Below, in pieces: positions 17,171 through 62,074 of a stretch of 64,000 bases of DNA (position 1 is the stretch's first letter; the number at the start of each line of letters is the position of its first letter). Source of the DNA: an uncultured Dehalococcoidales bacterium (lineage in GTDB: Bacteria; Chloroflexota; Dehalococcoidia; GIF9; AB-539-J10). The translations under genes and the position numbers were made by a program. The notes below the pieces were generated by a model that ran no database searches, was not told the origin of the DNA, and worked only from the letters and a program-made list of their open reading frames with translations. Location: NCBI GenBank assembly GCA_964586515.1, contig CAZPGJ010000001.1:394560-458559 (forward strand), read 5' to 3'.

Positions 17171-18514
17171 TTGCAGACGACGAGCTTGGAGAGCATAACC
17201 CGGACACAGCCTCCCAAAATCGAACTTGATGGGGGAGGCCTTAACGAGCGCCTCTGTATTGAGGACAAATATCACTCCGTGATGTCGGAAAACCACAAAC
17301 TGGCCCACCTTGTCTCATACGTCGGCAATAAATCCGTTCCAATTCTAAGGCTCTACCGTTTCAAGGAGGCATTCTCTCTTGGCCTGGTAAATTATTTCTT
17401 GGACGAATTCAAAGCTACGTCAGACGACCTCGTATTCGATCCTTTTGCGGGAATGGGCACCACACTGTTTGGGGCGATGCTACGAGGATTACCTTCTCTG
17501 GGCATCGATAAGTTACCTGTGGCAGCATTTGTCAGTAGGACGCTTCCGAAATTCCTGCTATTGGAGCCGGGCTCACTAGCTTCAACCTTCAGGCGGCTCG
17601 AGAACGTAGTGGACAAGTTGGAACCGGCGACTATTGCGGATGATGTTTCCATTATGAAAATCGCATTTGAGGAGCCGTACCTCACAAGGCTACTAAAATG
17701 GAAGGCCGCTATCGATAGCTTGCCAGCACCGCACAAAGAGCTCTTCACTCTGTTGCTCCTGTCCATATTGGAAAGTACAAGCTACGCGTCCAATGATGGT
17801 CAGTTTCTGAGGTTGAACCTCCACAAGAAGCTTATGGCTCCCGACGAAGCGTTACTTAGAAAGGTGTTACTGGCCGAAGCTGACTCAATTGCGATCCAGC
17901 ATATGTGGCTCGACAGAATCCGGTACACTGAGAATCTGCCAATTCTCTGCGAAGCTGACGCACGAGACTTGAGCAATGTGGAGTTCCCAAAGAAGCCTAC
18001 AATTATAATAACATCACCCCCTTACCCCAATAGATATGATTATTCCAGAAGTTACTGCCTGGAACTATGTTTCCGCTTCGTGAAAAGTTTTGAAGAGTTG
18101 AAGGCGGTGCGGTTTGGGATTCTGCGCTCGCATATCGAATCCAGGGCCGAAGAGGGTGATAAACCTTGCCACCCTGTAATAGCCGAAGTCATACAAAACC
18201 TGGAAGGGCGGAAACTCAACAATCCACGCATTCCCATCATGCTGACTGCCTATTTCGTCGATATGGAGAAGTGCATACATGAGTGGGGTCGGGTGCTGGC
18301 CTCCGGTGCAAGGGTTGCTATGGTGGTAGACAACGTACGTTTCGAAGGACAACTCGTACCCGTCGACCTCGTTCTCTCTGACATAGCTGAACGATACGGT
18401 TTTTGCGTCGACGGAATTGTTGTAGCGCGGTACAAGGGCAATAGTTCACAGCAAATGGGACGCTATGGTCGTATCCCTGTGCGAGAGAGTATTACATTGT
18501 GGAGGAAGCTGTGA
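17171..18514 (+). CDS. Type II DNA methyltransferase (N4-C/N6-A, alpha-class order)
   Basis: 447 aa; motif I DPFAGMGTT near residue 90 and motif IV TSPPY near residue 283 with a TRD-sized spacer. Confidence 0.75.
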   Translation: MQTTSLESITRTQPPKIELDGGGLNERLCIEDKYHSVMSENHKLAHLVSYVGNKSVPILRLYRFKEAFSLGLVNYFLDEFKATSDDLVFDPFAGMGTTLFGAMLRGLPSLGIDKLPVAAFVSRTLPKFLLLEPGSLASTFRRLENVVDKLEPATIADDVSIMKIAFEEPYLTRLLKWKAAIDSLPAPHKELFTLLLLSILESTSYASNDGQFLRLNLHKKLMAPDEALLRKVLLAEADSIAIQHMWLDRIRYTENLPILCEADARDLSNVEFPKKPTIIITSPPYPNRYDYSRSYCLELCFRFVKSFEELKAVRFGILRSHIESRAEEGDKPCHPVIAEVIQNLEGRKLNNPRIPIMLTAYFVDMEKCIHEWGRVLASGARVAMVVDNVRFEGQLVPVDLVLSDIAERYGFCVDGIVVARYKGNSSQQMGRYGRIPVRESITLWRKL

Positions 18515-19518
18515 GGCAGAGTGAGCTGCAACGTGAAGCAGAACAAGCCAGCTATGCGCTGCGCTCGTCATTCTTCTACAGGGTTCACTCTTTGTGGCCA
18601 AATCTCCTGCAGATGTTGTCGCTGGCGGGAGGTTTGAAGGTAAACTGGCGAGGCCGTAGAGGACTTGGTATTTCTGAGGCAGCATGGCAGCGTATCCAGA
18701 CCCAGGGTATTGATCCAGTCAATGTATTTTGCCATCCTGCAGTGATAAGAGCGACCCCTCCGCTGATTACCTACTATCGTTGTCTGGCGTTGCTTCCTCA
18801 AAAGGGCGCGCAGCGTCTAGCCTACACAACCAAACAGTTTGAGGATGGGAAGAAGACTAACTTAGTCGAGAAGCAAGCAACCAAGCTGGCACAGGTCTTT
18901 AATGGCCTTGTCAGCCTTCTCATTGAGTCCGACCCAAAGTGGTCATTGGAACAGAATCGTATTGCGGCTTTACTGAATCTGGGCACGCAGGTCAATGGCT
19001 CCTGGCGCAATGAGATAGGCGCTGAGGGAAGCCGCAGAGTAAAAGAGTTGCTGATTAGCCACTTTGTCCAGTCGGGGCTTGTAAGTGATGCTTCCAGAAC
19101 AAATGGATCAAAGATACAAATTGCGGAACTTGCTGGTGCACCTGAGGCTCCGCCAATCGAGGTAATCCGATCATTCAAAACGCCTGCTGGTTATATGTTT
19201 ACCTTTGCAAGCGAGCCCGATGTATCGATTCGTAGCGCTGACGGGGTCTTGGTGAGCACAATTGAGGTTAAATATGGGCTCGATCCAGCCGGGGCACTTG
19301 AGCGCTACGGGGCTGCCAAGAAATCTTTCGAGCAGGCGACAAGAGAGAATCGCCGAGTTCACAATATATACCTGGCCAGCTGCATTACCCCCGAGGTCCG
19401 AAACAGAATTAGCGAAGACAGGCTCGTCAACGAAGATTTCAATCTTACAGAAGTGCTTGGGGATGCTGAAAAGCGAACGCAGTTCCTTAGGCATATAGAG
19501 CACCTTATTAGCCTGTAA
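18499..19518 (+). CDS. cognate Type II restriction endonuclease (PD-ExK)
   Basis: 339 aa; start overlaps MTase stop; candidate catalytic motif EPD...(18)...IEVK; no other recognisable domain. Confidence 0.5.
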   Translation: MEEAVRQSELQREAEQASYALRSSFFYRVHSLWPNLLQMLSLAGGLKVNWRGRRGLGISEAAWQRIQTQGIDPVNVFCHPAVIRATPPLITYYRCLALLPQKGAQRLAYTTKQFEDGKKTNLVEKQATKLAQVFNGLVSLLIESDPKWSLEQNRIAALLNLGTQVNGSWRNEIGAEGSRRVKELLISHFVQSGLVSDASRTNGSKIQIAELAGAPEAPPIEVIRSFKTPAGYMFTFASEPDVSIRSADGVLVSTIEVKYGLDPAGALERYGAAKKSFEQATRENRRVHNIYLASCITPEVRNRISEDRLVNEDFNLTEVLGDAEKRTQFLRHIEHLISL

Positions 19519-31116: not shown

Positions 31117-31458
31117 CTACTTGAGTCCCAGGGCGTCTCGGAGGTTGCCTTCAATTCTTTTCATATCTGCCGGGGGCATTATTCCAAGCTTCTTGGCTAT
31201 CATGCCCTGCTTTATCGTTCTTACAATTCCTGTGGCAACGGAGGGGAAAAGCAGCCCAGCCTCCTGCCAATCGCTGATAAGGTGGTCGCCCACCAATATC
31301 CGGTCAGTCCTGCTGGTGATTGCCGCAATTATAGCTTCTTGACGGCTTTGATGGTAAGTGTCTGAGCTTACTATGACTGCCGGACGCCGCCTCTCTCCAG
31401 TTTCATCGGAGAAGATAAACCTGACAAGGACTACATCTCCACGTTTATACCTGGTCAT
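31117..31458 (-). CDS. MazF/PemK-family endoribonuclease toxin
   Basis: From MTRYKRGDVVLVRFIFSDETGERRRPAVIV...; PemK fold motifs. Confidence 0.7.
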   Translation of the reverse strand: MTRYKRGDVVLVRFIFSDETGERRRPAVIVSSDTYHQSRQEAIIAAITSRTDRILVGDHLISDWQEAGLLFPSVATGIVRTIKQGMIAKKLGIMPPADMKRIEGNLRDALGLK

Positions 31459-31732
31459 AAGCTGCGTCCTTTTCGTTATCCCAGGCTTCGGCAAGGACCG
31501 GGTCAGCTTTTGCAGACAACTTCAAAAGCGTCTCTACATTGGCAAACTCCTCTCCTGGACGGGGCACCTTATCTATGTCTTCTTTACGAAATCGGCGATG
31601 ACGTTCTTTACCAATCCGAAAAGCCGGCAACCTGCCTTCCTTGGTCAGTTTGTAGATAGTTCTTCTAGATACGCATAGGTATTCAGCAGCTTCTTCAACT
31701 GTAAACCATTCTTTAGTGATTACCATGAGCAT
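31445..31732 (-). CDS. HTH (excisionase/MerR-like) antitoxin partnered with MazF
   Basis: From MLMVITKEWFTVEEAAEYLCVSRRTIYKLTKEGRLPAFRIG; C-terminal ...AEAWDNEKDAAYD acidic tail; overlaps mazF start. Confidence 0.55.
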   Translation of the reverse strand: MLMVITKEWFTVEEAAEYLCVSRRTIYKLTKEGRLPAFRIGKERHRRFRKEDIDKVPRPGEEFANVETLLKLSAKADPVLAEAWDNEKDAAYDQV

Positions 31733-31967
31733 ACCTCCACAAGCTCGTGTTCGTGCCTGGCACCATTCTAGCACATACACGCAAATAAAAGCAATACTGT
31801 ACTTTCCTGACATTTGTCCTGATTACCTGGAACCTGCTCCAAAACGGCGTAAGTAATCTCGTCCGCCCCGGGCTGGAGAAGCCGATTTTTTGAAAACCGG
31901 GGTGATTGCTTTATACTATTCGGGATTGATACGGCGATGAGAGTATAGGCGACTCGAGAAGGTTACC

Positions 31968-34355
31968 TTGGGCGACAGGGATTTAGAACTGCTGGAATTT
32001 CATAAGATACGGGAGATACTGGCCGGCTTTACTTCATTTTCCGCCAGCCGAGAGCTGGCCCTCGACCTCACTCCCCTCTCGGATGAGGAAGAGGTCCGCC
32101 TGCGGCTCAGGCAGTCGGCTGAGGCGCGCCGTTGGCTGTCACTCAGTCCCGATACCCATATCGGCGAAGTTACCGATATCCGGGAAACGGTGAAGATGGC
32201 GGCACGCGGCAAGGTCCTGGCCCCTCAGTCGCTGCTGGAAATCCAGGGGACGCTGGACTCCGCCCACCGGCTGAAAAAGCACCTGATGAACCTGCCGGGC
32301 GAACTCCCGTTACTCGGCGGTCTGGCCCGGGACATTGTGGCACTGGACCAGCTTCAAAAGGATATTGGTGGCTGCTTGAGCCCGACCGGCGACCTGCTGG
32401 ACGCTGCCTCACCTAAACTGGCGTCGGTGAGACATAGAATGCGAGAGGTACGCCAGGAACTGCTCACTCACCTGCAAGCCATAATCACCTCACCCAGAGG
32501 ACGGAGAATAATCCAGGACCCCATTGTTACCGAGCGGGAAGGCCGGTATGTAATTCCCGTCAAGGTGGAATTTCGCCGGCAGATAAAGGGCATTATCCAC
32601 GACGTCTCCAATACCGAGGCCACGGTGTTTATCGAGCCATGGACAACTACGGACGTGCAAAATGAACTGCGCGAGCTGGCTGCGGAAGAGAAGGACGAAA
32701 CAGAAAGGATATTGAGAACGCTCAGTGCTGAAGTTGGGGCGTTCCAAAGAGAAATTTCCCGGAACATTGAGCTGATTGCCGAGATTGACTTGGCACTGGC
32801 TAAGGCTAGATATGCTAGGGAGGCCAGAGCCACCGAGCCCATTATCGTGGCCGCTGCTAGAAGCGCTGAGGCAGAGGGACATGAACCTGCCGGAGTGCTC
32901 AGGCTGGTCGAAGCTAGGCATCCGCTGCTGAAAAAGAAGGCAGTGCCGCTGTCGGTCGAGATTGGCCGGGACTTCTCCATTCTGGTTATTACCGGGCCCA
33001 ATACCGGTGGTAAGACGGTCGCCCTCAAAACGATAGGGCTTCTCAGTCTGATGGCGCAGGCCGGCCTGCCCATTCCAGCTCAGGCGGAAAGCCGCATCCC
33101 TATTTTTGACGGCGTATATGCCGACATCGGTGATGAGCAGAGCATCGAGCAGACCCTGTCTACATTCAGCTGGCACATAGGCAACATCGTGCACATCATC
33201 AATAACGCCACGGCACAGAGCCTGGTGCTGTTAGATGAACTGGGCACTAACACCGACCCGGGTGAAGGCTCGGCTCTCGGCCGCGCTATCCTGCTCCATT
33301 TCCTATCACAGGAAACGATGACCGTAGCCACCACTCACTACACCGAATTGAAGGCGCTGGCCCATGCTACCGACGGCATGGAAAATGCGGCTCTGGATGT
33401 GGACCCTGTTACCATGACGCCCACCTATCACCTGACGGTGGGTGTCCCGGGCGGCAGCAATGCTCTGGCTACAGCATCCCGCCTGGGACTGCCCGCGGAG
33501 ATCGTGACCCGCGCCCGGCATATGCTTTCCGAAGGCGCCCAGGAGATTGAGTCTTTGCTTACCCATCTGGTGACCGAGCAGAAGAATGTTGAGTCGCTTC
33601 GCCACAGCCTGGAGAAGGAGCTGAGTGAGGCAGAACAGAACGACGCAAACTTGAAAAACAGGCTCCGCCAGTTGGAGGAGGAGAGGCGGAGAATCATCAA
33701 GCAGACACGTGACCAGCTAGCCCGCGAGGCTACTGAGTTACAGGTGAAAATTCGTGAGGCGGCAGCGGAATTGCGCAAGGAAAAATCTAAGGAAAGAATC
33801 GAGCAGGCCAAAAAGGCACTGGCCGAAGCACAGGAGCAGTTGGATGCCGGAGTATGGCAGGCCAGACCGGCGGTTGGGATAGACGAAACAGAAGCCGAGG
33901 CAGGCTCAATCACTGCCGGTGATACCGTCTGGTTGAAAGAGGCTGGCGTGCCAGCAACGGTACTTTCGGTGTCCGAGGAACGCGGGCTCGTCGAGGTCCA
34001 GGCCAGGAAGGTGAAGATGACCCTCAGGCTGGACAGCGTGGAGAAGAGGATACCATCAGCTGGTGCGGTGAAGACAGGTGGCGCCCCGATAAGGAGGGAG
34101 GTGCGCAAGTCCAGGGTCTCTCTCGAGCTTGACCTGCGGGGAAAGAGGGCCGAGGAGGTTGAGCCGGTGCTGGAGGGCTATCTTAATGAAGCGTCTTTAT
34201 GCGGGTTGAGCCGAGTCCGCATCATTCACGGTATCGGCACGGGCACCGTGCGCCAGATTGTCAGGGAGATACTGGCCTCTCATCCGCTGGTCACGTCTTT
34301 CCAGCCCGGGGAACAGGGCGAGGGCGGCGACGGCGTTACCATAGTCAGCCTGTAG
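31968..34355 (+). CDS. mutS2: endonuclease MutS2 (ribosome-collision sensor/splitter RqcU-type)
   Basis: 795 aa; Walker A GPNTGGKTV, ABC-like ATPase, coiled-coil, C-terminal Smr domain LDLRGKRAEE...VRIIHGIGTGTVRQ. Confidence 0.9.
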   Translation: MGDRDLELLEFHKIREILAGFTSFSASRELALDLTPLSDEEEVRLRLRQSAEARRWLSLSPDTHIGEVTDIRETVKMAARGKVLAPQSLLEIQGTLDSAHRLKKHLMNLPGELPLLGGLARDIVALDQLQKDIGGCLSPTGDLLDAASPKLASVRHRMREVRQELLTHLQAIITSPRGRRIIQDPIVTEREGRYVIPVKVEFRRQIKGIIHDVSNTEATVFIEPWTTTDVQNELRELAAEEKDETERILRTLSAEVGAFQREISRNIELIAEIDLALAKARYAREARATEPIIVAAARSAEAEGHEPAGVLRLVEARHPLLKKKAVPLSVEIGRDFSILVITGPNTGGKTVALKTIGLLSLMAQAGLPIPAQAESRIPIFDGVYADIGDEQSIEQTLSTFSWHIGNIVHIINNATAQSLVLLDELGTNTDPGEGSALGRAILLHFLSQETMTVATTHYTELKALAHATDGMENAALDVDPVTMTPTYHLTVGVPGGSNALATASRLGLPAEIVTRARHMLSEGAQEIESLLTHLVTEQKNVESLRHSLEKELSEAEQNDANLKNRLRQLEEERRRIIKQTRDQLAREATELQVKIREAAAELRKEKSKERIEQAKKALAEAQEQLDAGVWQARPAVGIDETEAEAGSITAGDTVWLKEAGVPATVLSVSEERGLVEVQARKVKMTLRLDSVEKRIPSAGAVKTGGAPIRREVRKSRVSLELDLRGKRAEEVEPVLEGYLNEASLCGLSRVRIIHGIGTGTVRQIVREILASHPLVTSFQPGEQGEGGDGVTIVSL

Positions 34356-34377
34356 CCAGAGTGTTTCGCCCGACCCT

Positions 34378-35142
34378 GTGATTGATATTATGTTTATGTC
34401 AAGGAGATTTTGTCTGGGCAGGTCGAAGATGCTCGACTTTCTGGACGAGCTGGCTGTGACCGAAGGCCAAGCGATATCGGCGTATTTCCCACGGGGGACG
34501 CCTCAAGCCCGGGTTGAAAATCTGCTGGGGAAGGTGTTTACCGCAACTGCCATACCGCCAGGTGTGGCTGAGGTTACTGCCGGGTCGGAAATGGGAGCGG
34601 CGTTTTTCTGGAGCCCGCCGCAAATGTACCTGGTTCTGCCCACGTTCCCTATTGCCGAAGAATATGTCACCAGCGGCTACGATGTTGGGCCGTTGCGTTC
34701 CCTTCTCAGTCAGGACTTTCTTATCGCTCTGGTGCTGGTCCGCCTGGGGTCGTACAGCATTGGCGTCTGCCGGGGCACAGAGCTCATAGATAGCAAGACA
34801 GGGACAGGCCTGGTGCACGCCCGCCACAAAAAGGGCGGTTCCTCGCAGGCGCGGTTTGCCCGACACCGCGAAAAGCAGATAGAGCAGTTTCTGATCCGCG
34901 TCTGCGGTCATGTGCGGGAGCATATCGAGCCTCATGCCCGTTCACTCGACTATCTGGTCTATGGCGGAGCCAGAACCACCATACTCTTGTTGCGCAAACA
35001 GTGCCCGTTCCTGGGCCAATTTGAGGGCCGCATCTTGCGGATGCTGCTGGATATACCTGAGCCGCGCAAACCCGTACTGGAAAAAGCCATCGGCACCGTC
35101 TGGTCAACCGATGTTATCGAATGGCACGAGGATAACTCTTAA
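34378..35142 (+). CDS. eRF1/Pelota/Vms1-like (baeRF1-type) release-factor-domain protein with divergent GGQ loop
   Basis: 254 aa; residues 100-200 align to eRF1 central domain: ...LIDSKTGTGLVHARHKKGGSSQARFARHREKQIEQF vs eRF1 [26 protein letters not shown]; GGQ replaced by GGSSQ (nt 34834-34848); 23 nt after mutS2 stop, same strand. Confidence 0.55.
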   Translation: MIDIMFMSRRFCLGRSKMLDFLDELAVTEGQAISAYFPRGTPQARVENLLGKVFTATAIPPGVAEVTAGSEMGAAFFWSPPQMYLVLPTFPIAEEYVTSGYDVGPLRSLLSQDFLIALVLVRLGSYSIGVCRGTELIDSKTGTGLVHARHKKGGSSQARFARHREKQIEQFLIRVCGHVREHIEPHARSLDYLVYGGARTTILLLRKQCPFLGQFEGRILRMLLDIPEPRKPVLEKAIGTVWSTDVIEWHEDNS

Positions 35143-35256: not shown

Positions 35257-35946
35257 GTGGTCATGTCTATAACAAGATTCATCAAGGACTTACTGAGGAG
35301 GCCTGAAGCAATCCCGACCCCTGGCGCCATAATCTACGGTGCAACCGTGACAAGAGTCCTGCGCAAGCCGGAAACAAAGATAGCTAATGACATAGTGGAA
35401 AAGGTGAAAGATGGGACTATTCTTGATTTAGGTTCGGGACCAGGCTTTTTGTCAACAGAGATTGCCAGGAAGTCACCGGGCCTACAGGTCTGCGGCATCG
35501 ATCTCAGCAGGCAAATGGTCAAGATTGCCGGGCGCCATGCCAGAGGCCTTGATAATGCTCGATTTGTGTTTGGCAATGCAGCCAGACTTCCTTTCCAGAA
35601 TAATTCAATAGACCTTGTGATTAGTACGGGCGCTTCGCACCACTGGAAGACACCGCGCCTGGTGTTTGATGAGTGCTATCGTGTTCTAAAAACCGGTGGG
35701 GAAGCCTGGATATACGATGGGTGTCCTGAGGTTTTCCACAACCCGGCTGGTAGAAGAAAATTGAACGAGGAATATGGGTTCTTGATTGGCCGGTTTGGAC
35801 GCAGAGTCTCTACACTGCATGGTTTCAGCAAGGAAGAATACGAGACCGTAATTAAGGGTGCGCTAGAGCAAACGGCATTCAAAGGCAACTACGAGATGGC
35901 GCTAACAGATATCTGGATGAAGATTACGCTCAAGAAGCGCCAGTGA
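35257..35946 (+). CDS. class I SAM-dependent methyltransferase (type 11)
   Basis: 229 aa; motif I ILDLGSGPGFL, post-I acidic CGIDLS, motif II FVFGNAARLPF. Confidence 0.8.
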   Translation: MVMSITRFIKDLLRRPEAIPTPGAIIYGATVTRVLRKPETKIANDIVEKVKDGTILDLGSGPGFLSTEIARKSPGLQVCGIDLSRQMVKIAGRHARGLDNARFVFGNAARLPFQNNSIDLVISTGASHHWKTPRLVFDECYRVLKTGGEAWIYDGCPEVFHNPAGRRKLNEEYGFLIGRFGRRVSTLHGFSKEEYETVIKGALEQTAFKGNYEMALTDIWMKITLKKRQ

Positions 35947-42363: not shown

Positions 42364-43185
42364 ATGGCACAAACTATAAGAACTCTGGGCGATAAGGGCA
42401 GCAACCTCCTGACCGGATTATCACGCCAGGGGAAGAGACTTTTTACTTTCATGGATGCCACAGAAGTCTACGGTAAAAGCGATGGTGGACTTCATAAGCT
42501 TTTGCATACGCTGGTCAAAAGGCGGTGGCTTCAGCGTGTGGAAAAAGGCAAATACCTGATTCTCCCCTTTGAAGCTGGCCGCGAGCGTGAATGGACTGAA
42601 CACGAGTTCATTATTGCTTCCTATCTGATTAACCCCTACTACATAGGATTTCGAAGTGCATTGAACTACTACGGTTACACAGAGCAGGTCAGCCGGGCTG
42701 TCTTTATAGCATCGACACACCGCAAGATGAAGACGGAACTTGATATCTCAGGGGTAACATATCGATTCGTCCATATGACAGAGAGGAAATTCTTTGGAGA
42801 AACTAAGGTGATCTTGGACGGGTATGGCATAAAAATATCGGAACGTGAGAAGACGATTGTTGATTGCCTTGATAGATTGGAATACTGCGGTGGTATATCA
42901 GAAGTAGCCAAAGCCCTTTCATATGGCCGTGATGAATTCGATTTGGTGAAAATGGTTCATTATGCCGTGAAAAGCGGAAATAAAGCTGTAATCAAACGCC
43001 TGGGTTACCTCTTAGAGCTTCTAAATTTCGAGGCCGGTAATGCCATCAACATACTGCGCGGCAACCTTAGCAGCGGTTATTCCCCATTAGATACTTTGGG
43101 ACACCGGGAAGGCCGCCATATCCAGCGCTGGCGATTGCTAGTAAATGTACCGCAGAATGAAATCTCCCAGTGGCAGGAGCTCTGA
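42364..43185 (+). CDS. AbiEi-family antitoxin (type IV TA / abortive infection)
   Basis: 273 aa; N-terminal wHTH, AbiEi C-domain. Confidence 0.65.
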   Translation: MAQTIRTLGDKGSNLLTGLSRQGKRLFTFMDATEVYGKSDGGLHKLLHTLVKRRWLQRVEKGKYLILPFEAGREREWTEHEFIIASYLINPYYIGFRSALNYYGYTEQVSRAVFIASTHRKMKTELDISGVTYRFVHMTERKFFGETKVILDGYGIKISEREKTIVDCLDRLEYCGGISEVAKALSYGRDEFDLVKMVHYAVKSGNKAVIKRLGYLLELLNFEAGNAINILRGNLSSGYSPLDTLGHREGRHIQRWRLLVNVPQNEISQWQEL

Positions 43186-44012
43186 TGTTATCCAGAGCCG
43201 AACTTCAGAGACTAGCCAATCGGGAGAAGGTAGCTCTGGGCGTATTAGAAAAGGACTACGTGCTTACAGAGGTGCTGAAGGCGTTATTCCAGCTACCGGC
43301 ATTGCGCGAAAGCTTCGTATTCAAAGGTGGCACTGCTCTGCGCAAGGTTTATTTTCCGCGCTGGCGTTATTCAGAAGACCTGGATTTCACCGTCAAATTC
43401 GATATTCCCAAAGAAGAACTTGGACAGAACCTCGATGGCTTGTATCATCAAGTAGAACAAGCCACTCAAATTCGGCTCACTACTAGAATGCTTCACAAGA
43501 CAAATGGCTACGCCCGTATCAGGACTCAATTCTTAGGACCTTTGGCTCATCCGGCTATGATCTACATGGATTTGAGTTTCGATGAACCGTTATGCCTCGA
43601 ACCTCAGTCCCGAAAGGTATTGACTGCACCCTTCCCTGATGAGGAACGAACAGTTCAAGTGTATCCCCTGGAGGAATTAATGGCCGAGAAGATGCGCAGT
43701 TTGGTAGAACGGGGTAAATCAAGGGACTACTACGATGTGTGGAGGCTTCTAAAAGAACAACGCTCCCAGATGAACTTAGAGCTACTGGGAATGGTACTTG
43801 GGAAGAAACTCAGGCATAAGGGACTGAGACTCGGGACTACAGCAGATTTTCTCCCTGAGAATCCAGCCGGAATCAAAAGGTATTGGGAGAAAGACCTTAG
43901 TCAGCAGGTTGCTGCGCTACTACCTCTTGAGAATGTACTTAACGAGCTAAAGCACATGCTTGATAGCTATGTAGCTCCACATTTGACCTTGCAGTCTGGT
44001 GAGCCTCGATAA
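43170..44012 (+). CDS. AbiEii/AbiGii nucleotidyltransferase toxin (DUF1814)
   Basis: 280 aa; FKGGTALRKVYFPRWRYSEDLDF motif; overlaps abiEi stop. Confidence 0.7.
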   Translation: MAGALMLSRAELQRLANREKVALGVLEKDYVLTEVLKALFQLPALRESFVFKGGTALRKVYFPRWRYSEDLDFTVKFDIPKEELGQNLDGLYHQVEQATQIRLTTRMLHKTNGYARIRTQFLGPLAHPAMIYMDLSFDEPLCLEPQSRKVLTAPFPDEERTVQVYPLEELMAEKMRSLVERGKSRDYYDVWRLLKEQRSQMNLELLGMVLGKKLRHKGLRLGTTADFLPENPAGIKRYWEKDLSQQVAALLPLENVLNELKHMLDSYVAPHLTLQSGEPR

Positions 44013-45976: not shown

Positions 45977-46231
45977 ATGAAAGAGCAGAATAAGGACAGA
46001 AAAAGACTAAAATTAGTCCCATTTGGGGATGCATATATACAAAGAAGTAGGCGTCTCGCTATCCCTGAGATCTTGTTGCAAAACGTTGAGTTGCGGGAGG
46101 GAGATGCAGTCAAGTTATTTCTTGATGTTGGGGATATTACTGGTGAGAAGGCGATTGTGGTAATGAAATCAAAAAATCCTGACAAAATTAAGGCCAAAGG
46201 CCGCAGGCAAAAAAGAGGAGAGACTACTTGA
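45977..46231 (+). CDS. AbrB/SpoVT-like small DNA-binding protein, possible controller of downstream R-M gene
   Basis: 84 aa; RRLAIPEILLQNVELREGDAVKLFLDVGDITGEKAIVV resembles AbrB-N swapped hairpin; stop overlaps TTG start of 46228 gene; AT-rich. Confidence 0.4.
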   Translation: MKEQNKDRKRLKLVPFGDAYIQRSRRLAIPEILLQNVELREGDAVKLFLDVGDITGEKAIVVMKSKNPDKIKAKGRRQKRGETT

Positions 46232-48924
46232 TTTATCCTTTGGGTCTTTATTCAGGTGACGCCAGCAATAAGTTTTGTTCTCTCAAGAATCTTCGCAACG
46301 AGAGTGATGTAGAGCAGTTCTTCACTATCCGCTTGCTCAATCATCTGGGATATACTGACGATTTCATTGAAACAAAAACCTCACTAAAAGGTGAACTGTT
46401 AGGAAAGGGTACTAGACGTAGGACATATGTTCCTGATTATGTTTGCTATAAAGATAGGCAACATAAGATTCCTCTTCTGGTTGTGGATGCAAAGAGCCCT
46501 CTTGAAAGTGCTGAGGCAGGCGCAAGTGATGCACAAGAATATGCTGCAGTTTTACACCGACGTCTAGATGACCCAAAACCAGAAATCTATTGCATAGGCA
46601 CAAATGGTACTCGCACTATCGTAAAGCACTATGATAGAGAAAAACCAGAGTTTGACCTTACTTTTGAAGAGTTTGTTGATGGGAATCCTAAGTTCGCTGA
46701 CTTTATTTCCGTGCTTTCGAGAGCATCACTATCGGAAGTTAGTTTCCCGGCAGGTGCAATATTTGAGTTCAGGAAACCGGGCCTTGGCGAAGTAAGAGGC
46801 ATCTTCCAAGCCTGCCACAATATTATATGGCGTAAGGAAAAAATGTCCCCCCAAGCCGCCTTCTATGAATTCTGCAAAATTATGTTTATTAAACTTCGAG
46901 AGGATAAGAAGCTAAGAGGAGACCCAGAACTAAGTCAGTTGATTCGTAACGGACGTCCATTGCCGACGGATAGAGTATTGTTTAACCTTCATATGATAGT
47001 ACAAAGTGAGGATGCAGACCCTAATCCGGTTAACTCTATGCTTTTTAAGCGTCTCAGGGAAGAATTAGAACATGAAATACGAATTGGACGTAAGAAGCGT
47101 ATTTTTGAGCCTGATGAAGAGATAAGACTGAAAGCTACTACAGTTAAAGAAGTCGTGAGGCACCTTGAACACCACGACCTTTATGGTATAGATGAAGATT
47201 TAAATGGTCGATTATTTGAAACTTTCTTAAGTTCCACCATGAGAGGGCCTGAACTAGGTCAATTTTTTACACCGCGTTCTGTAGTTGAATTTATGAGCGA
47301 CCTTGTTGATTTACAAGTGTCACTTCAATATGTCGATTCGGTAATTGACCTATGCTGTGGCACTGGAGGCTTCCTTATAGAGGCGATGGCAAAAATGGCA
47401 GAAAAGGTAAACAGACCCCCGCTGGCAACTGTGCTTGGAAGTGGTGAAAAGGAAAAGATACTACAAAAGATAAGAGATGAGCAGCTACTAGGAATAGATG
47501 CAGGAAAAGACCCCCCTATAGCTAGGATTGCTAGAATCAACATGTATTTACATGGGGATGGAGGTAGCCACATCTACTTTGCAGACGCTCTAGATAAGGC
47601 GACTGCAATAGAGGAAGGTGTGGAACCTGAATTAAGAACAGAACGAGAGGAACTTCGTCAAATTCTTGTTACTGGCGGACATAAGTTTGATGTCGCCCTA
47701 ACTAATCCTCCATTTGCTATGCGTTATAAACGTTCTGAGGCTGATGAACGAAGCATACTTGAACAATACAAACTAGGGGAATATATTGCTAAGAAGGGTT
47801 CTCGAAAACAAAGAGCTTCTTTAAAGTCAAATATTATGTTCTTGGAACGGTATTGTGACTTGTTAAAGCCTGGAGGCAGACTTTGTACTATAATTGATGA
47901 AAGTGTGCTAAATACGGATACAGATAAAGAAGCCAGATACTTTCTGCTGCATAACTTCCTAGTGAGAGCCGTGATTAGTTTGCCCCGATGGGCATTTTTT
48001 GAAGCAGGCTCAAATGTAAAGACCTCTATTCTATTCTTGACCAAAAAACATGAAACGTCTGAAGAGCAACCTCACACGTTCTATGCACGCTGTGAGAACA
48101 TAGGTTATGACTATCAGAAACCAGACCCTACAAAAAATGAACTACCTATGATTCTAACCGCATACAGAGCATATCAGAAAGACGGGAAAATACTTGAGAA
48201 GCAAAAAACTCATTGGAGCGACAAGACTCGGCTCTTCTCCACGAAGTTAACATCAGACATAAGACGAATCGACTTTGAATACCTTGACCCTCGGCATGAA
48301 GTAATGCTAGAGAAATTGCAGGAAATAGCCACCACCCGAAACTATGAGATAGCTAACCTTGATGATTTATGTGAGGTGTTCCGGGGTAAGACTGCAGAAC
48401 AATATGTTACTGATGGCATCCCTATAATTAAACTACGAAACGTAACGAACGAGGGTATAAATTGGGAAGATATAGATTTTGTGCTTAGAGACTTTTTTGA
48501 TGATAATCCTGATTGCCATCTAAAGCCTTTAGATATTTTGCTTACCTCTACAGGAGTGGGAACTATCGGTAGGGTCGATATGTTGGATAGGGACATACCC
48601 TGTATGACAGATGGGCATGTTACTGTGTTAAGGGTAAAGGAACAAACTAAGGTTCTGCCCCGATATATCCTTTATTACCTCCGGTCAACTTTAGGACAAA
48701 TGCAAATGGAGAAATATACTGTAGGCAGTACTGGCCAAACTGAGCTCAATAGAGATGATGTTAAGGCAATAAAGGTTGTTTATCCTGAGTCAGCCGATGA
48801 CCAATCAAAATTAGCTGATGCTGCACACAGTATAGAGGCTGTCGCAGTCAGAGCAAGAAATGAATATAGGAATAACTTAGCAATGGCTAGACTGAAATTT
48901 GCTGAATCGTTGGGTTTGTCATAA
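46228..48924 (+). CDS. single-chain Type IIG/IIL-like restriction-modification enzyme (nuclease + gamma-class N6-MTase + TRD)
   Basis: 898 aa; N-terminal PD-(D/E)xK (VPDYVCY...VVDAKS), MTase motif I LCCGTGGFL and motif IV LTNPPF, C-terminal HsdS-like TRD; AGAGGAG SD before TTG start. Confidence 0.65.
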   Translation: MIYPLGLYSGDASNKFCSLKNLRNESDVEQFFTIRLLNHLGYTDDFIETKTSLKGELLGKGTRRRTYVPDYVCYKDRQHKIPLLVVDAKSPLESAEAGASDAQEYAAVLHRRLDDPKPEIYCIGTNGTRTIVKHYDREKPEFDLTFEEFVDGNPKFADFISVLSRASLSEVSFPAGAIFEFRKPGLGEVRGIFQACHNIIWRKEKMSPQAAFYEFCKIMFIKLREDKKLRGDPELSQLIRNGRPLPTDRVLFNLHMIVQSEDADPNPVNSMLFKRLREELEHEIRIGRKKRIFEPDEEIRLKATTVKEVVRHLEHHDLYGIDEDLNGRLFETFLSSTMRGPELGQFFTPRSVVEFMSDLVDLQVSLQYVDSVIDLCCGTGGFLIEAMAKMAEKVNRPPLATVLGSGEKEKILQKIRDEQLLGIDAGKDPPIARIARINMYLHGDGGSHIYFADALDKATAIEEGVEPELRTEREELRQILVTGGHKFDVALTNPPFAMRYKRSEADERSILEQYKLGEYIAKKGSRKQRASLKSNIMFLERYCDLLKPGGRLCTIIDESVLNTDTDKEARYFLLHNFLVRAVISLPRWAFFEAGSNVKTSILFLTKKHETSEEQPHTFYARCENIGYDYQKPDPTKNELPMILTAYRAYQKDGKILEKQKTHWSDKTRLFSTKLTSDIRRIDFEYLDPRHEVMLEKLQEIATTRNYEIANLDDLCEVFRGKTAEQYVTDGIPIIKLRNVTNEGINWEDIDFVLRDFFDDNPDCHLKPLDILLTSTGVGTIGRVDMLDRDIPCMTDGHVTVLRVKEQTKVLPRYILYYLRSTLGQMQMEKYTVGSTGQTELNRDDVKAIKVVYPESADDQSKLADAAHSIEAVAVRARNEYRNNLAMARLKFAESLGLS

Positions 48925-49193: not shown

Positions 49194-50015
49194 TTGCAAG
49201 TTCTGGGGGTGACGGAAGGAAATATGACTCGGCAATTGCATATCACCATCGAAGGAAGACTAGGCCAAATTCCCCTTAATACACTAGCGACTATGGCACG
49301 AAACTCCTGTGATATTTTGGAGGAGTTGGATAATGTGACCTCTGCGAAGCCCGGTGGGACTATGGAATGGTTTGTCTCGGGCATCTCCACTGAGGCAAGT
49401 TTGACGGTCACCATCGAAGCAAAGCCAAAACTAAAGGATGTAGATTATACAGGGAGGGTAGCAGAATTATTTGTTGATGGATTGGCGCATATTGAGAAGG
49501 AGCATACCACTCCGCCGTATTTTTCTGACTATGGTCTCCGTAAAACTCATAACATTGCCAAAACCCTTCGTAAGAATGGAGCAGAAGCTATCAGAGTGGA
49601 AGACATTGAACGCAAAGCCAGTGGCCTTATAAAGGCAGATGTGGCGGACCCTCTGAAAAAACTCATTAGTATTCGGTATCAAGAGATAGGTTCAGTAGAG
49701 GGTACACTTGAAATGATTTCTATTCACGGCTATCCACGTACAACTGTTTATCATTCTATTACACATCGGTCTGTTAGCTGCAAATTTGCCCCCAGATTGT
49801 TAGAGATAGTTAAAGAAGGGCTGGGAAATCGTGTGATTGTACACGGCATAGTTTATTTCAACTATGTGCATGAACCGATAAGAGTGGATGCCGAGAGGAT
49901 AGAAATAATGCCTCAAGAGGAGGAACTTCCTACGGCAAAAGACTTACGTGGTATGGTTCCTGATTTCACGGGGGATATGAAGACTGAAGACTATATTCGG
50001 AGTCTTCGTGAATGA
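49194..50015 (+). CDS. hypothetical protein (no recognisable domain), upstream partner of PIN gene
   Basis: 273 aa (probable start MTRQLHITIEG at 49224); stop overlaps start of PIN gene (ATGA). Confidence 0.45.
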   Translation: MQVLGVTEGNMTRQLHITIEGRLGQIPLNTLATMARNSCDILEELDNVTSAKPGGTMEWFVSGISTEASLTVTIEAKPKLKDVDYTGRVAELFVDGLAHIEKEHTTPPYFSDYGLRKTHNIAKTLRKNGAEAIRVEDIERKASGLIKADVADPLKKLISIRYQEIGSVEGTLEMISIHGYPRTTVYHSITHRSVSCKFAPRLLEIVKEGLGNRVIVHGIVYFNYVHEPIRVDAERIEIMPQEEELPTAKDLRGMVPDFTGDMKTEDYIRSLRE

Positions 50016-50494
50016 CTAACACTATTTATAAACAACCGTATTTGGAGAGTAGCGTTTTTATCGCCCTCATTAAAGGTGAGGTCATAGACGGGGTAGATAG
50101 AGCCGATATTGCTCAACACATTCTTGACGATGCTGCAAGAGGAAGGTGGCCTATTTTCACATCCACATTTACCTTTGCAGAAGTAATCAAAGATCGCAAA
50201 AGACCCTTGTTAACACTGGAGGAAGAAAGGAGAATTGGTGATTATTTCAAACATAAATACATTAAGCCAGTGCTATTAGATAGGGAAGTTGGAGAATCAG
50301 CGAGACGATTAGCTAGAATTTATACTCTACGCCCCGCTGATGCTGTTCACTTGGCAAGTGCTATCCAAGCAAAAGCAGATGAATTGTTGACTTGGGATAG
50401 TGGTAATTTCCCAATTGGTCAAACTATAGAGGGAGTCACAATTAAATTACCATATTGGTTTGGTCAAACTAGGATACCATTGCAACCAAGCTAA
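50012..50494 (+). CDS. PIN-domain nuclease
   Basis: 160 aa; acidic residues in PIN positions: YLESSVFIA, TSTFTFAEV, PADAVHLASA, LLTWDSG. Confidence 0.6.
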   Translation: MTNTIYKQPYLESSVFIALIKGEVIDGVDRADIAQHILDDAARGRWPIFTSTFTFAEVIKDRKRPLLTLEEERRIGDYFKHKYIKPVLLDREVGESARRLARIYTLRPADAVHLASAIQAKADELLTWDSGNFPIGQTIEGVTIKLPYWFGQTRIPLQPS

Positions 50495-60055: not shown

Positions 60056-62074
60056 CTACCTTCTGAACAGCCGAGTAAGCCATGAGCGCCGTTGTAGTGA
60101 CTGTCCTTCCAGCCATTCCTTGAATTCATTTGGGGTTTCAATGATCAAGGTATTGCCCCGTCGCTGGGATTTGACCGTTTGGGGAAGGTAAGCCTGATAT
60201 TCGCCAATTTCCCTAGGTTGCATATCCTTGGAGAATTCTATCAGCATGCGACCCTTTTCTGGAATGGTCTTTGCCTTTCCCCGGAGCTGATGCAAAATGT
60301 CGTACCAAGCGCGGCGGCCCGGGTCGTAGAGCCTCTCTATCGGTTCTTGGGGAAAGAATTCTGGCAAAGGGCGCTGTGCATGTTCATAAAGTTCCTTCAT
60401 GGCAACACGCGCCAACTGAAGCTCATCATCACTAACCAATTCAGAGTTCTTCAGGAGTTTCAAATAAAGATGGGAAAACCACCTGAAGATAAGGTTCTCT
60501 TCTGAGAAGAGTTTTGCTAGCTTCTGTTTACTGTGCTCATTTGGAGCAAATTGCACATCAAAATCTACGCGTTTCACCCGCGACTTAGCCCACTCTTGGA
60601 GCCGCGAACTGTTGGAAGTTATGATAATTTGAGGCGACACATAATCTTGTTTCCACCAAACTTCCCAGTAAGATTTAATTACGTTCTGAAAAATCACGCC
60701 CTGAGATACATCATCAAATACCAATGGAAATACAGTGCCAAGGTCAGTCGCCGCAAAGATCCGCTCCCTGATAAAATCCTTTCCAGAGAACGGTTGTATC
60801 ATGTGTCCTGTAAGAAGCTTGAGAGCAAAGCGTAAGAAGGTAGATTTACCGTTCTGGGAGGGGCCGTAAATATAAAGGAACCTTGGCCCTCGCTGGTCAA
60901 TTATACCGTATTTGGTTCTCTTGTTTTTCATGTATTCGTTCGCGAAGGGAGCAAAAAACATATATAGCAAGGCTTCAAACATGCTTGTCTTGGCAAACTT
61001 AGGGTCAGGTGATTGCCCGAAGTCTACTGTGTCCAGATAGTCCTCAATATGCTGGAGTCCTTGATCCACCAAAGCAGGCTCGGGCATGGCTTCACTAAGC
61101 GAGAGCACTGAGCCATTAATACCCAACCGTATCTCCTCCTGCTCTAAATCTACACGCATGAGTGGAAACCCATGATTCTCTTCTACGTAGCGGATAAAAA
61201 CGAAGTTATTCAAGCGCAGTTCATTGTGTGTCATCAAAGGTTGCAGTGGTTCCAGAAATTTGTCTATTTGTCTTTTAGCTGCTGGCGCTTTGGGCAATTG
61301 TACTGCAATGAGCGATTCCTCTCTCAGATTAGAGGATTGCAGTGCCTTTAGGGAAATTTCCTGGAGGGTCCTCTTTGCTTCCAGATTCTCTTCGTCGACA
61401 GAAGTTCCCTTAAGCCATGCCTCGATGACCTGTACTCTATCTAAATCTTTATGTTTGTCTAAGAGCTCTCTCAGATCGCCCATAAAAAGAAAACAGTCCT
61501 TGAGGTGTGATTGGTAATCCTGGCGCACTTTAAGAAGCAAAGGATCATCCACCGGGAGGTCTGCATACCAAGCGTAATTGATTTGGCGACTGGCTTGGCG
61601 TGCTGTCTCAGTGAAGTTGGCACTACTCACAATGACCCGATCAGAACTGTGCCCTTCCAAGATATATAATTTGGTGTGGATGATTCGTTCTTTAGGGATG
61701 AAGATACGTAGTATACCATCCTCCACCCTTTCCAACAGTCGTTCAGTAACTTCAATGCCCTTTCGTTCTAGATCCTGCTGGTATTGTTTAGAGAGATTTT
61801 CTCCCACAAGCACCTCAACTTCTGTATAGCCGCGCCTGTCGAAAAATTCCAGGAGCAGATCCGGGGAAACGACGTAAGAGATTGCCCAGAGCTTAGTGAA
61901 ACCTTCAAAAAGGTTCTCAAAGTTTTGCTTGCGGGAGATGACCACTGTGTGCAATGGAGGTATTGAATTGGAGGTAAAGAAGGGAATTTGTCTCATGTGC
62001 TGCTTAGAGTCTCCTCTAATGTCCGTCATCGCTACATTTCCCTTTGCGGCATTGCTGGTTTTTTTTCTTTCCAT
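60056..62074 (-). CDS. PLD-family nuclease domain fused to SF3/D5-like P-loop NTPase
   Basis: 672 aa; N-terminal HxK...SSAN motif (IIHTKLYILEG...VIVSSANFT); C-terminal Walker A YIYGPSQNGKSTFLRF and Walker B VFPLVFDDV resembling phage/plasmid primase-helicase C-domain. Confidence 0.5.
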   Translation of the reverse strand: MERKKTSNAAKGNVAMTDIRGDSKQHMRQIPFFTSNSIPPLHTVVISRKQNFENLFEGFTKLWAISYVVSPDLLLEFFDRRGYTEVEVLVGENLSKQYQQDLERKGIEVTERLLERVEDGILRIFIPKERIIHTKLYILEGHSSDRVIVSSANFTETARQASRQINYAWYADLPVDDPLLLKVRQDYQSHLKDCFLFMGDLRELLDKHKDLDRVQVIEAWLKGTSVDEENLEAKRTLQEISLKALQSSNLREESLIAVQLPKAPAAKRQIDKFLEPLQPLMTHNELRLNNFVFIRYVEENHGFPLMRVDLEQEEIRLGINGSVLSLSEAMPEPALVDQGLQHIEDYLDTVDFGQSPDPKFAKTSMFEALLYMFFAPFANEYMKNKRTKYGIIDQRGPRFLYIYGPSQNGKSTFLRFALKLLTGHMIQPFSGKDFIRERIFAATDLGTVFPLVFDDVSQGVIFQNVIKSYWEVWWKQDYVSPQIIITSNSSRLQEWAKSRVKRVDFDVQFAPNEHSKQKLAKLFSEENLIFRWFSHLYLKLLKNSELVSDDELQLARVAMKELYEHAQRPLPEFFPQEPIERLYDPGRRAWYDILHQLRGKAKTIPEKGRMLIEFSKDMQPREIGEYQAYLPQTVKSQRRGNTLIIETPNEFKEWLEGQSLQRRSWLTRLFRR

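Follow-up and report, generated by a model that had tools for sequence, protein, structure and literature searches.

A mutS2-acVLRF1 gene pair in a Dehalococcoidales genome and a candidate nascent-chain release factor for bacterial ribosome quality control

What does a gene for a release-factor-like protein do directly behind mutS2? The question is raised by a 64,000-nucleotide stretch of DNA from an uncultured Dehalococcoidales bacterium (contig CAZPGJ010000001.1, positions 394,560 to 458,559; "the window" below means this whole stretch), in which a gene of the acVLRF1 family follows the gene for MutS2 on the same strand. It bears on the last step of ribosome-associated quality control (RQC), which in bacteria is the least understood of the pathway. 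According to a 2024 study, bacteria have no known termination factor dedicated to RQC, and the general peptidyl-tRNA hydrolase Pth does the job in Bacillus subtilis (PMC11317155), in agreement with the original prediction for this locus, which held that classical bacterial RQC includes no such factor. We find that the pairing of the two genes is real, clade-specific and, as far as we searched, unreported, and that the conserved pair makes the acVLRF1 protein a candidate for the nascent-chain release factor that is still missing from bacterial RQC. The features on which the argument turns are as follows:

31968 to 34355, plus strand: mutS2 (795 amino acids, aa), with the MutS domain V ABC-ATPase, a KOW-like MSSS and a C-terminal Smr domain
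34356 to 34389, plus strand: spacer of 34 nucleotides (nt) from the mutS2 stop to the acVLRF1 ATG
34390 to 35142, plus strand: acVLRF1-family gene, 250 aa and stop, placed by the PF18859 match, start-codon conservation and the AlphaFold2 model
34390 to 34683, plus strand: N-terminal extension (about residues 1-98), mixed alpha/beta, standing in for the stop-codon-reading domain of eRF1
34684 to 35139, plus strand: RNase H-fold release-factor (RF-PH) domain, a homologue of eRF1 domain 2 and of the VLRF1 domain in Vms1
34834 to 34848, plus strand: GGSSQ loop (G149 G150 S151 S152 Q153), counterpart of the GGQ loop
34852 to 34869, plus strand: start of the basic helix, RFARHR (R155 F156 A157 R158 H159 R160), aligned to RFARLR of aRF1

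The upstream gene, judged by its translation, is built like MutS2/RqcU, which senses and splits collided ribosomes. The NCBIfam equivalog model TIGR01069 reaches 804.2 bits (cut-off 400), Pfam recovers MutS_V (123 bits), Smr (78 bits) and, at the borderline, MSSS (25.9 bits, cut-off 26.8), and Walker A (GPNTGGKT), Walker B (LVLLDELG), DLRG and HGIGTG motifs can all be read in the protein. The adjacency to mutS2, on which the original prediction was built, is not peculiar to this genome and recurs at deep divergence and in two gene orders. Distant contexts were drawn from contigs encoding homologues and from one metagenome scan, and the single genome-contig scan gave mostly close relatives. Within its own clade, the window and 33 of 34 informative loci, down to 42% identity, have MutS2 directly upstream on the same strand; likewise, among the 31 species-representative genomes with a relative (42-88% identity) it is found directly upstream wherever upstream sequence is present, except in L030. 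This sole exception of the clade carries a 10-codon scar of the MutS2 C-terminus (GGGDVTIVSL) directly before acVLRF1 (L030 5075-5190); mutS2 may have been deleted or moved there, or the contig may be misassembled. At four loci of 42-60% identity (L031, L044, L046 and L047) the pair is kept while the other neighbours are entirely different. On long contigs with other flanking genes, the two genes are 48 nt apart in L044 and 4 nt apart in L046, and in one lineage (L047 5612-5956, L048 1268-1612) a 114-aa open reading frame (ORF) without a family match stands between them.

A second clade, at about 33-37% identity, has the reversed order, acVLRF1 followed by MutS2, at 10 loci: in L039 the called genes are separated by 75 nt, and in nine metagenome loci 55-505 nt lie between the ends of the tblastn matches. 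Insertions have not separated the two genes far. L035 (6939-8431) carries a restriction-modification pair (N6_N4 methylase and BglII-type endonuclease) between acVLRF1 and MutS2 and L042 and L043 carry two beta-helix protein genes there; in all three, both genes remain on one strand and within 5 kb. Same-strand adjacency is thus found beyond close relatives and independently of the flanks, in the 33 loci and the window, in the 10 reversed loci and in the 3 with insertions. When the neighbours of 16 linked loci were compared all against all, MutS2 and acVLRF1 were the only genes common to 16/16, and no third conserved partner (e.g. RqcH, RqcP or Pth) was found near the pair across these loci; neither were rqcH, rqcP or pth found within the 64-kb window, a result that does not bear on the genome beyond it. 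Fusions of MutS2 with acVLRF1 were not seen, the best 150 representatives all being ≤306 aa. That the pair persists, in either order, while its flanks turn over completely speaks for selection on co-expression.

Single loci of the family show further rearrangements. An IS1595 transposase has inserted into the pair in L041 (8607-9416). In L026 (5959-7320) acVLRF1 is fused in frame to a Peptidase_M23 domain of about 200 aa (E=1.4e-10), in this metagenome-assembled genome (MAG) only, and L017 has a homologous gene standing separately about 2.6 kb downstream; a stop codon may have been lost in L026, or release factor and peptidase may be genuinely fused.

What kind of protein does the downstream gene encode? 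Profile matches class it as a member of the already catalogued acVLRF1 family of predicted peptidyl-tRNA hydrolases, and thus as no new kind. Pfam PF18859 ("Actinobacteria/chloroflexi VLRF1 release factor") matches with E=4.1e-29 and 101.9 bits (cut-off 27.1) over profile positions 3-129 of 130, and is overlapped by weaker matches to baeRF_family10 and eRF1 domain 2. A short N-terminal extension followed by an RF-PH domain, with neither a stop-codon-binding nor a Pelota-type C-terminal domain, a GGSSQ loop of the GGxSQ type followed by the arginines of RFARHR, and a Chloroflexota host are all shared with acVLRF-1, the family that Burroughs & Aravind (2019, PMC6514570) defined, along with its GGxSQ motif, and for which they noted an N-terminal extension that is short and distinctive. 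NCBI records give close homologues from Dehalococcoidia MAGs the name "Vms1/Ankzf1 family peptidyl-tRNA hydrolase". The novelty that the original prediction implied for the protein is therefore gone: the family was defined in 2019, is modelled in Pfam and NCBIfam, and has close homologues named by NCBI's Prokaryotic Genome Annotation Pipeline (PGAP). By contrast, the likeness to the eRF1 central domain, which had been read from the raw sequence, holds, with a significant Pfam eRF1_2 match (E=1.8e-6, 28.8 bits, cut-off 27.1) and a phmmer match to aRF1 4af1 among PDB sequences (E=1.1e-6, residues 92-196), in which HKKGGSSQARFARHR stands opposite QRKGGQSAQRFARLR and GGSSQARFARHR pairs with GGQSAQRFARLR. 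Pfam has no match for residues 1-103, nor for eRF1_1 or eRF1_3 anywhere in the protein.

A release-factor fold of the eRF1/Pelota/Vms1 kind, as originally proposed, is also what the AlphaFold2 model returns (146-sequence alignment; mean predicted local distance difference test score, pLDDT, 91.5; predicted template-modelling score, pTM, 0.85). Foldseek against the PDB ranks eRF1/aRF1 first (E 3e-11 to 1e-8), followed by the bacterial hibernation factor Balon, Pelota and 60S-bound yeast Vms1 (6r84_R, E 6.5e-5, template-modelling score, TM, 0.45), with only generic RNase H-fold proteins ranked lower; the tightest multi-element superposition is with Vms1, at 3.5 Å over 155 residues. The secondary structure of the N-terminal extension is modelled confidently. 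The sole region of lower confidence is the loop at residues 140-152, with a pLDDT of 66-75 for GGSSQ, which sits between a strand (131-139) and a helix (153-182).

Fold and family likeness do not make the protein a classical release factor. With aRF1/eRF1 it shares the homologous central domain (E ~1e-6), the highest structural scores and the alignment of GG and RFAR.R, whereas it lacks the stop-codon N-domain and the C-domain that binds eRF3/aEF1alpha and has its glutamine shifted by two residues; the aRF1/eRF1 model TIGR03676 reaches 40.9 bits against a cut-off of 234.7, over profile positions 117-219 only, and the loop is not GGQ. The VLRF1 model and the accessory domains that mark eukaryotic Vms1/ANKZF1 are missing too, namely the Rei1 zinc finger, ankyrin repeats, VIM/Cdc48-binding motif and Pfam VLRF1 match; furthermore, the loop reads GGSSQ instead of GSQ/TAQ (PMC6514570), and the proposed partner would be MutS2 instead of the eukaryotic RQC machinery. 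Nor was the Pelota/Dom34 layout of Sm-fold N-domain, loop-less central domain and C-domain found. The acVLRF1 protein is a predicted minimal Vms1-like release factor with neither a stop-codon-reading domain nor a GTPase-binding C-domain.

The gene itself is real: a first search returned 1223 homologues (E≤1e-3), and there are 677 cluster representatives at 50% identity. The ORF proposed originally, 34378..35142 on the plus strand, is present, encodes 254 aa from the first possible GTG and has a product containing HKKGGSSQARFARHREKQ. Its three candidate starts are GTG 34378, ATG 34390 and ATG 34429. The NCBI call P0001 (237 aa, 100% identical to the window protein) begins at ATG 34429, where the matching codon in related genomes is GCG, GCA, ATT or ACG; the "tattATG" at 34390 is kept across related genomes, and 250 aa is the length in most database gene calls for homologues. 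Because the codon at 34390 is conserved, the one at 34429 is not a start in many relatives and the database calls mostly have 250 aa, ATG 34390 is the best-supported start, with 34378 and 34429 less well supported. The distance of 23 nt from the mutS2 stop that had been given with the ORF accordingly becomes 34 nt (22 nt lie between the end of mutS2 at 34355 and the first possible GTG). Where genes are called in relatives the spacer measures 4-76 nt. A terminator scan found no terminator-like site between mutS2 and acVLRF1 in the window, which is consistent with co-transcription of the two genes.

The GG-S-S-Q loop of the original prediction is indeed encoded in the acVLRF1 frame at nt 34834-34848; its glutamine as a fixed catalytic residue had to be given up. 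Among 117 full-length representatives of 50%-identity clusters, all have G149, G150, S152 and R155, each of F156, R158 and R160 is kept by at least 94%, and at position 153 there is a Q in 82, an A in 25 and an S in 10. In proteins with only 50-70% identity to that of the window the loop reads RQGGSSA, KKGGSSA or RQGGSSS, and some clades have a literal GGQ, as GGQSQ or GGQSA. In 482 loop-containing sequences, loss of Q153 pairs with Q148 (odds ratio 21.8, Fisher p 7e-29, without a correction for phylogeny), and a glutamine at 148, 151 or 153 is altogether missing from 36 of them. Thus, the loop glutamine appears either to move between positions or to be dispensable, and the published "GGxSQ", whose glutamine varies across the family, would be better written GG-x-S, with GG-x-S...RF.R as the invariant signature in the sampled sequences. 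The arginines after the loop act in rRNA binding, the eRF1 counterpart being RFARLR, and families thought to be inactive have degenerate loops, unlike the invariant GG-x-S of acVLRF1 (PMC6514570). Variants seen across the family at the place of window positions 34831-34848 (residues 148-153) are KKGGSSQ, RQGGSSA/S, AGGQSQ, AGGQSA, AGGTSQ and KKGGSSA.

Family membership, fold, the conserved loop with its basic helix and the two-gene module in its two orders were obtained directly. What we infer beyond them is that acVLRF1 binds the 50S subunit, acts catalytically and depends on, or takes over from, MutS2. Our reading, to which we give a probability of about one half, is that acVLRF1 releases nascent chains from the 50S-peptidyl-tRNA complexes made when MutS2 splits collided ribosomes, the two proteins being co-expressed, as the gene pairing suggests. 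MutS2 would first split the collided ribosome, as is established in B. subtilis, and leave a 50S subunit still holding peptidyl-tRNA. With the 30S subunit gone, acVLRF1 could then bind the exposed A-site/peptidyl-transferase (intersubunit) side of the 50S via the helix of R155, R158 and R160, and the flexible GG-x-S(-Q) loop would enter the peptidyl-transferase centre; here the longer catalytic loop of VLRF-1 has been discussed in the context of the missing small subunit (PMC6514570). Finally, the chain would be freed either by ester hydrolysis in the manner of eRF1 or by cutting the tRNA 3' CCA in the manner of Vms1/ANKZF1, which are reported to remove the CCA end of the tRNA (PMC11317155); since the loop glutamine varies, both chemistries are possible.

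The pathway so drawn would begin with the same splitting step as B. subtilis RQC (MutS2/RqcU, RqcH, RqcP/YlmH and Pth), with which it shares the MutS2 domain set, and would differ from it at the end: there the general Pth releases the chain after alanine (Ala) tailing (PMC11317155) and a protein of the release-factor fold has no part in it. Of the 41 Chloroflexota genomes in a survey covering 15,259 genomes, 35 have mutS2 and 26 have rqcH (PMC11633108), so that at least 9 of the 41 have mutS2 without rqcH; from these counts, some Chloroflexota split ribosomes by MutS2 without the tailing factor. A bolder version, which we regard as tentative and rather doubtful, is that MutS2 and acVLRF1 form a self-contained, tail-less two-gene RQC in Chloroflexota, with no need for Ala-tailing by RqcH/RqcP or for Pth. 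If true, bacterial RQC would have in acVLRF1 its first dedicated release factor, and prokaryotes a counterpart of the eukaryotic Vms1 step; the movable or absent glutamine of acVLRF1 would imply a chemistry other than that of GGQ, such as cleavage of the tRNA 3' CCA.

Several observations weigh against the release of chains after MutS2 splitting. Linkage is a feature of certain clades and does not extend throughout the acVLRF1 family: MutS2 is missing from 46 loci that offer at least 600 nt on each side, 23 of which offer at least 3 kb on each side, and unlinked examples stand on contigs of hundreds of kb to Mb (L034, L036-38, L040 and L129). The loci of reversed order make up a single contiguous block in a neighbour-joining tree, separated from the window's clade by an unlinked block, and the linked groups are close enough that the linkage could go back to one or two ancestral events with an inversion and losses. 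Actinobacteriota have mutS2 in 0 of 3213 genomes, and rqcH likewise in 0 (PMC11633108), and the actinobacterial acVLRF1 must therefore work without MutS2; as many members are unlinked and Actinobacteria lack mutS2, the latter is not obligatory family-wide. As for the protein, NCBIfam NF041024 ("acVLRF1 family peptidyl-tRNA hydrolase") is narrowly missed, at 117.2 bits against a cut-off of 125 (8 bits short). The glutamine at position 153 is gone in 35 of the 117 representatives, 21 of 137 motif-bearing representatives (15%) have none at 148, 151 or 153, and P0443, whose loop is without any glutamine, is nevertheless tightly linked to MutS2. In addition, the release step in B. subtilis is done by the ordinary Pth (PMC11317155), meaning that a dedicated factor is not strictly needed, and our literature search found no experimental paper on a bacterial acVLRF1 member.

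Among the unlinked loci, two clades (L034 and L036-L038, also L032) have an Abhydrolase_10 gene upstream and a short-chain dehydrogenase gene on the opposite strand downstream of acVLRF1, and in L036-38 a TIR-domain gene has inserted directly upstream of it.

Could the protein instead act alone? As a stand-alone, stop-codon-independent rescue factor it might, like ArfB, serve stalled 70S ribosomes or obstructed 50S subunits, its place next to mutS2 then reflecting inherited synteny or a regulation shared by genes for translation stress, and no mechanistic hand-over. This is the alternative that fares best, and we still consider it unlikely. Most of the distant clades sampled are unlinked, Actinobacteria keep the family while lacking mutS2, and arfB is present in only 11 of 41 Chloroflexota genomes (PMC11633108), which leaves room for such a function; moreover, ArfB is also small, independent of a stop codon and has the peptidyl-tRNA hydrolase role on stalled ribosomes that is predicted here. 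ArfB, however, has an unrelated fold (the bacterial RF-PH) and a C-terminal helix that senses the mRNA channel (PMC6514570), and acVLRF1 has neither, nor does it have a codon-reading domain. A factor acting alone also makes it hard to explain, without selection on co-expression, why the pair outlasts complete turnover of its flanks in both orders, and the longer VLRF-1 loop has been tied to an absent small subunit (PMC6514570).

It is less plausible still that acVLRF1 is a non-catalytic occupant of the A site and peptidyl-transferase centre that, like Pelota/Dom34 or Balon, aids splitting by MutS2, or caps split 50S subunits so that they do not re-associate, and leaves peptidyl-tRNA uncut. The fold of Pelota and Balon matches that of the window protein, both occupy the ribosomal A site, the former is inactive and the latter a hibernation factor, and eukaryotic Dom34 partners an ABC-ATPase splitter (PMC10897456). 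The glutamine is evolutionarily dispensable, with A or S in 35/117 and none in 36/482. On the other hand, Pelota/Dom34 and Balon have three domains, bind a translational GTPase and lack a GG-x-S loop, whereas acVLRF1 has an invariant GG-x-S and basic helix where inactive families have degenerate loops; a glutamine at one or more of positions 148, 151 and 153 is retained in 85% of representatives, and the exchange of Q153 for Q148 (odds ratio 21.8, without phylogenetic correction) suggests relocation and not abandonment. In bacterial release factors the side chain of the GGQ glutamine matters less for catalysis than the position of its backbone.

We give little credence to the idea that the adjacency is functionally meaningless, a lineage-specific syntenic accident of two housekeeping genes. 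Few independent events would be needed, the linked groups being neighbours in the tree, and many clades are unlinked. Against this, the window and 33 of 34 loci keep the pair down to 42% identity while all other neighbours have changed, another clade has it inverted (55-505 nt between tblastn ends, 75 nt in L039), and after insertions the two genes still share a strand within 5 kb. By our estimate, the chance for a random gene of adjoining mutS2 is about 1 in 1000 in a genome of about 2000 genes.

An anti-phage defence reading was rejected: MutS2 is an equivalog-level housekeeping match, PADLOC has no match for acVLRF1, and its matches to MutS2 are weak (about 13-22 bits, residues 518-626 only).

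The original prediction had included a third gene:

35257 to 35946, plus strand: SAM (S-adenosylmethionine)-dependent methyltransferase, Methyltransf_11/UbiE-like, 114 nt downstream of acVLRF1

Of the proposed triplet of mutS2, the eRF1-like gene and the methyltransferase, the mutS2 pair is conserved; of the 26 close loci whose downstream sequence suffices, only 11 have a homologue of the methyltransferase behind acVLRF1, and of 97 more distant loci (L032-L128) none has one. That this enzyme methylates the loop glutamine in the manner of PrmC on GGQ, completing a three-gene module, is effectively refuted by these neighbourhoods: for all that it lies on the same strand close downstream and matches the PrmC model TIGR03534 weakly (32.6 bits, cut-off 199.1), its best matches are small-molecule types (BioC, UbiE and ArsM), a search for [DNS]PP[YFWH] found no NPPY motif, and the target glutamine is itself variable, so that it is better taken as a generic class I enzyme. 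The same gene matches PADLOC "mad2" (methylation-associated defence) with 73 bits, which is probably a generic similarity of methyltransferase domains.

Other parts of the window carry genes of a different nature. On the minus strand at 31117-31813, a PemK/MazF-type toxin and an HTH_17 protein lie in the gap of about 980 nt between the AMP-ligase gene and mutS2; since relatives have only about 200 nt there, they look to be a toxin-antitoxin insertion peculiar to this genome. Defence and toxin-antitoxin genes abound in the window (17171-19518, 42364-44012, 46228-48924 and 50012-50494), among them an N6_N4 DNA methylase together with an XcyI-like endonuclease, an AbiEi/AbiEii pair, a large N6_Mtase/Methylase_S/Eco57I fusion and a PIN-domain protein. 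Further, a 672-aa ORF without a Pfam match (60056-62074, minus strand) lies within an arginine-biosynthesis cluster of argJ, an amino-acid kinase, a class III aminotransferase and argininosuccinate synthase.

The pairing described here differs from the published picture of the family. Prokaryotic VLRF-1 proteins were called "standalone", independent of other RQC components, in a paper that never mentions MutS or Smr (PMC6514570), and MutS2 was recognised as collision sensor and splitter in 2022-2023, after that description of 2019. A 2023 EMBO J paper on MutS2, with Burroughs and Aravind among its authors, mentions neither VLRF nor gene neighbourhoods. Our full-text literature searches found no report of a link between acVLRF1 and MutS2, an absence that does not prove it unpublished, and nothing on the prokaryotic function of VLRF1 in bacteria beyond the 2019 paper. 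Should the proposed release function prove false, the gene stays an ordinary member of a known, uncharacterised family. If it is true, the eukaryotic order of events, splitting followed by Vms1-type release, would also exist in bacteria, and the variable glutamine of acVLRF1 would inform the debate on whether VLRF1 proteins act by ester hydrolysis or by cutting the tRNA.

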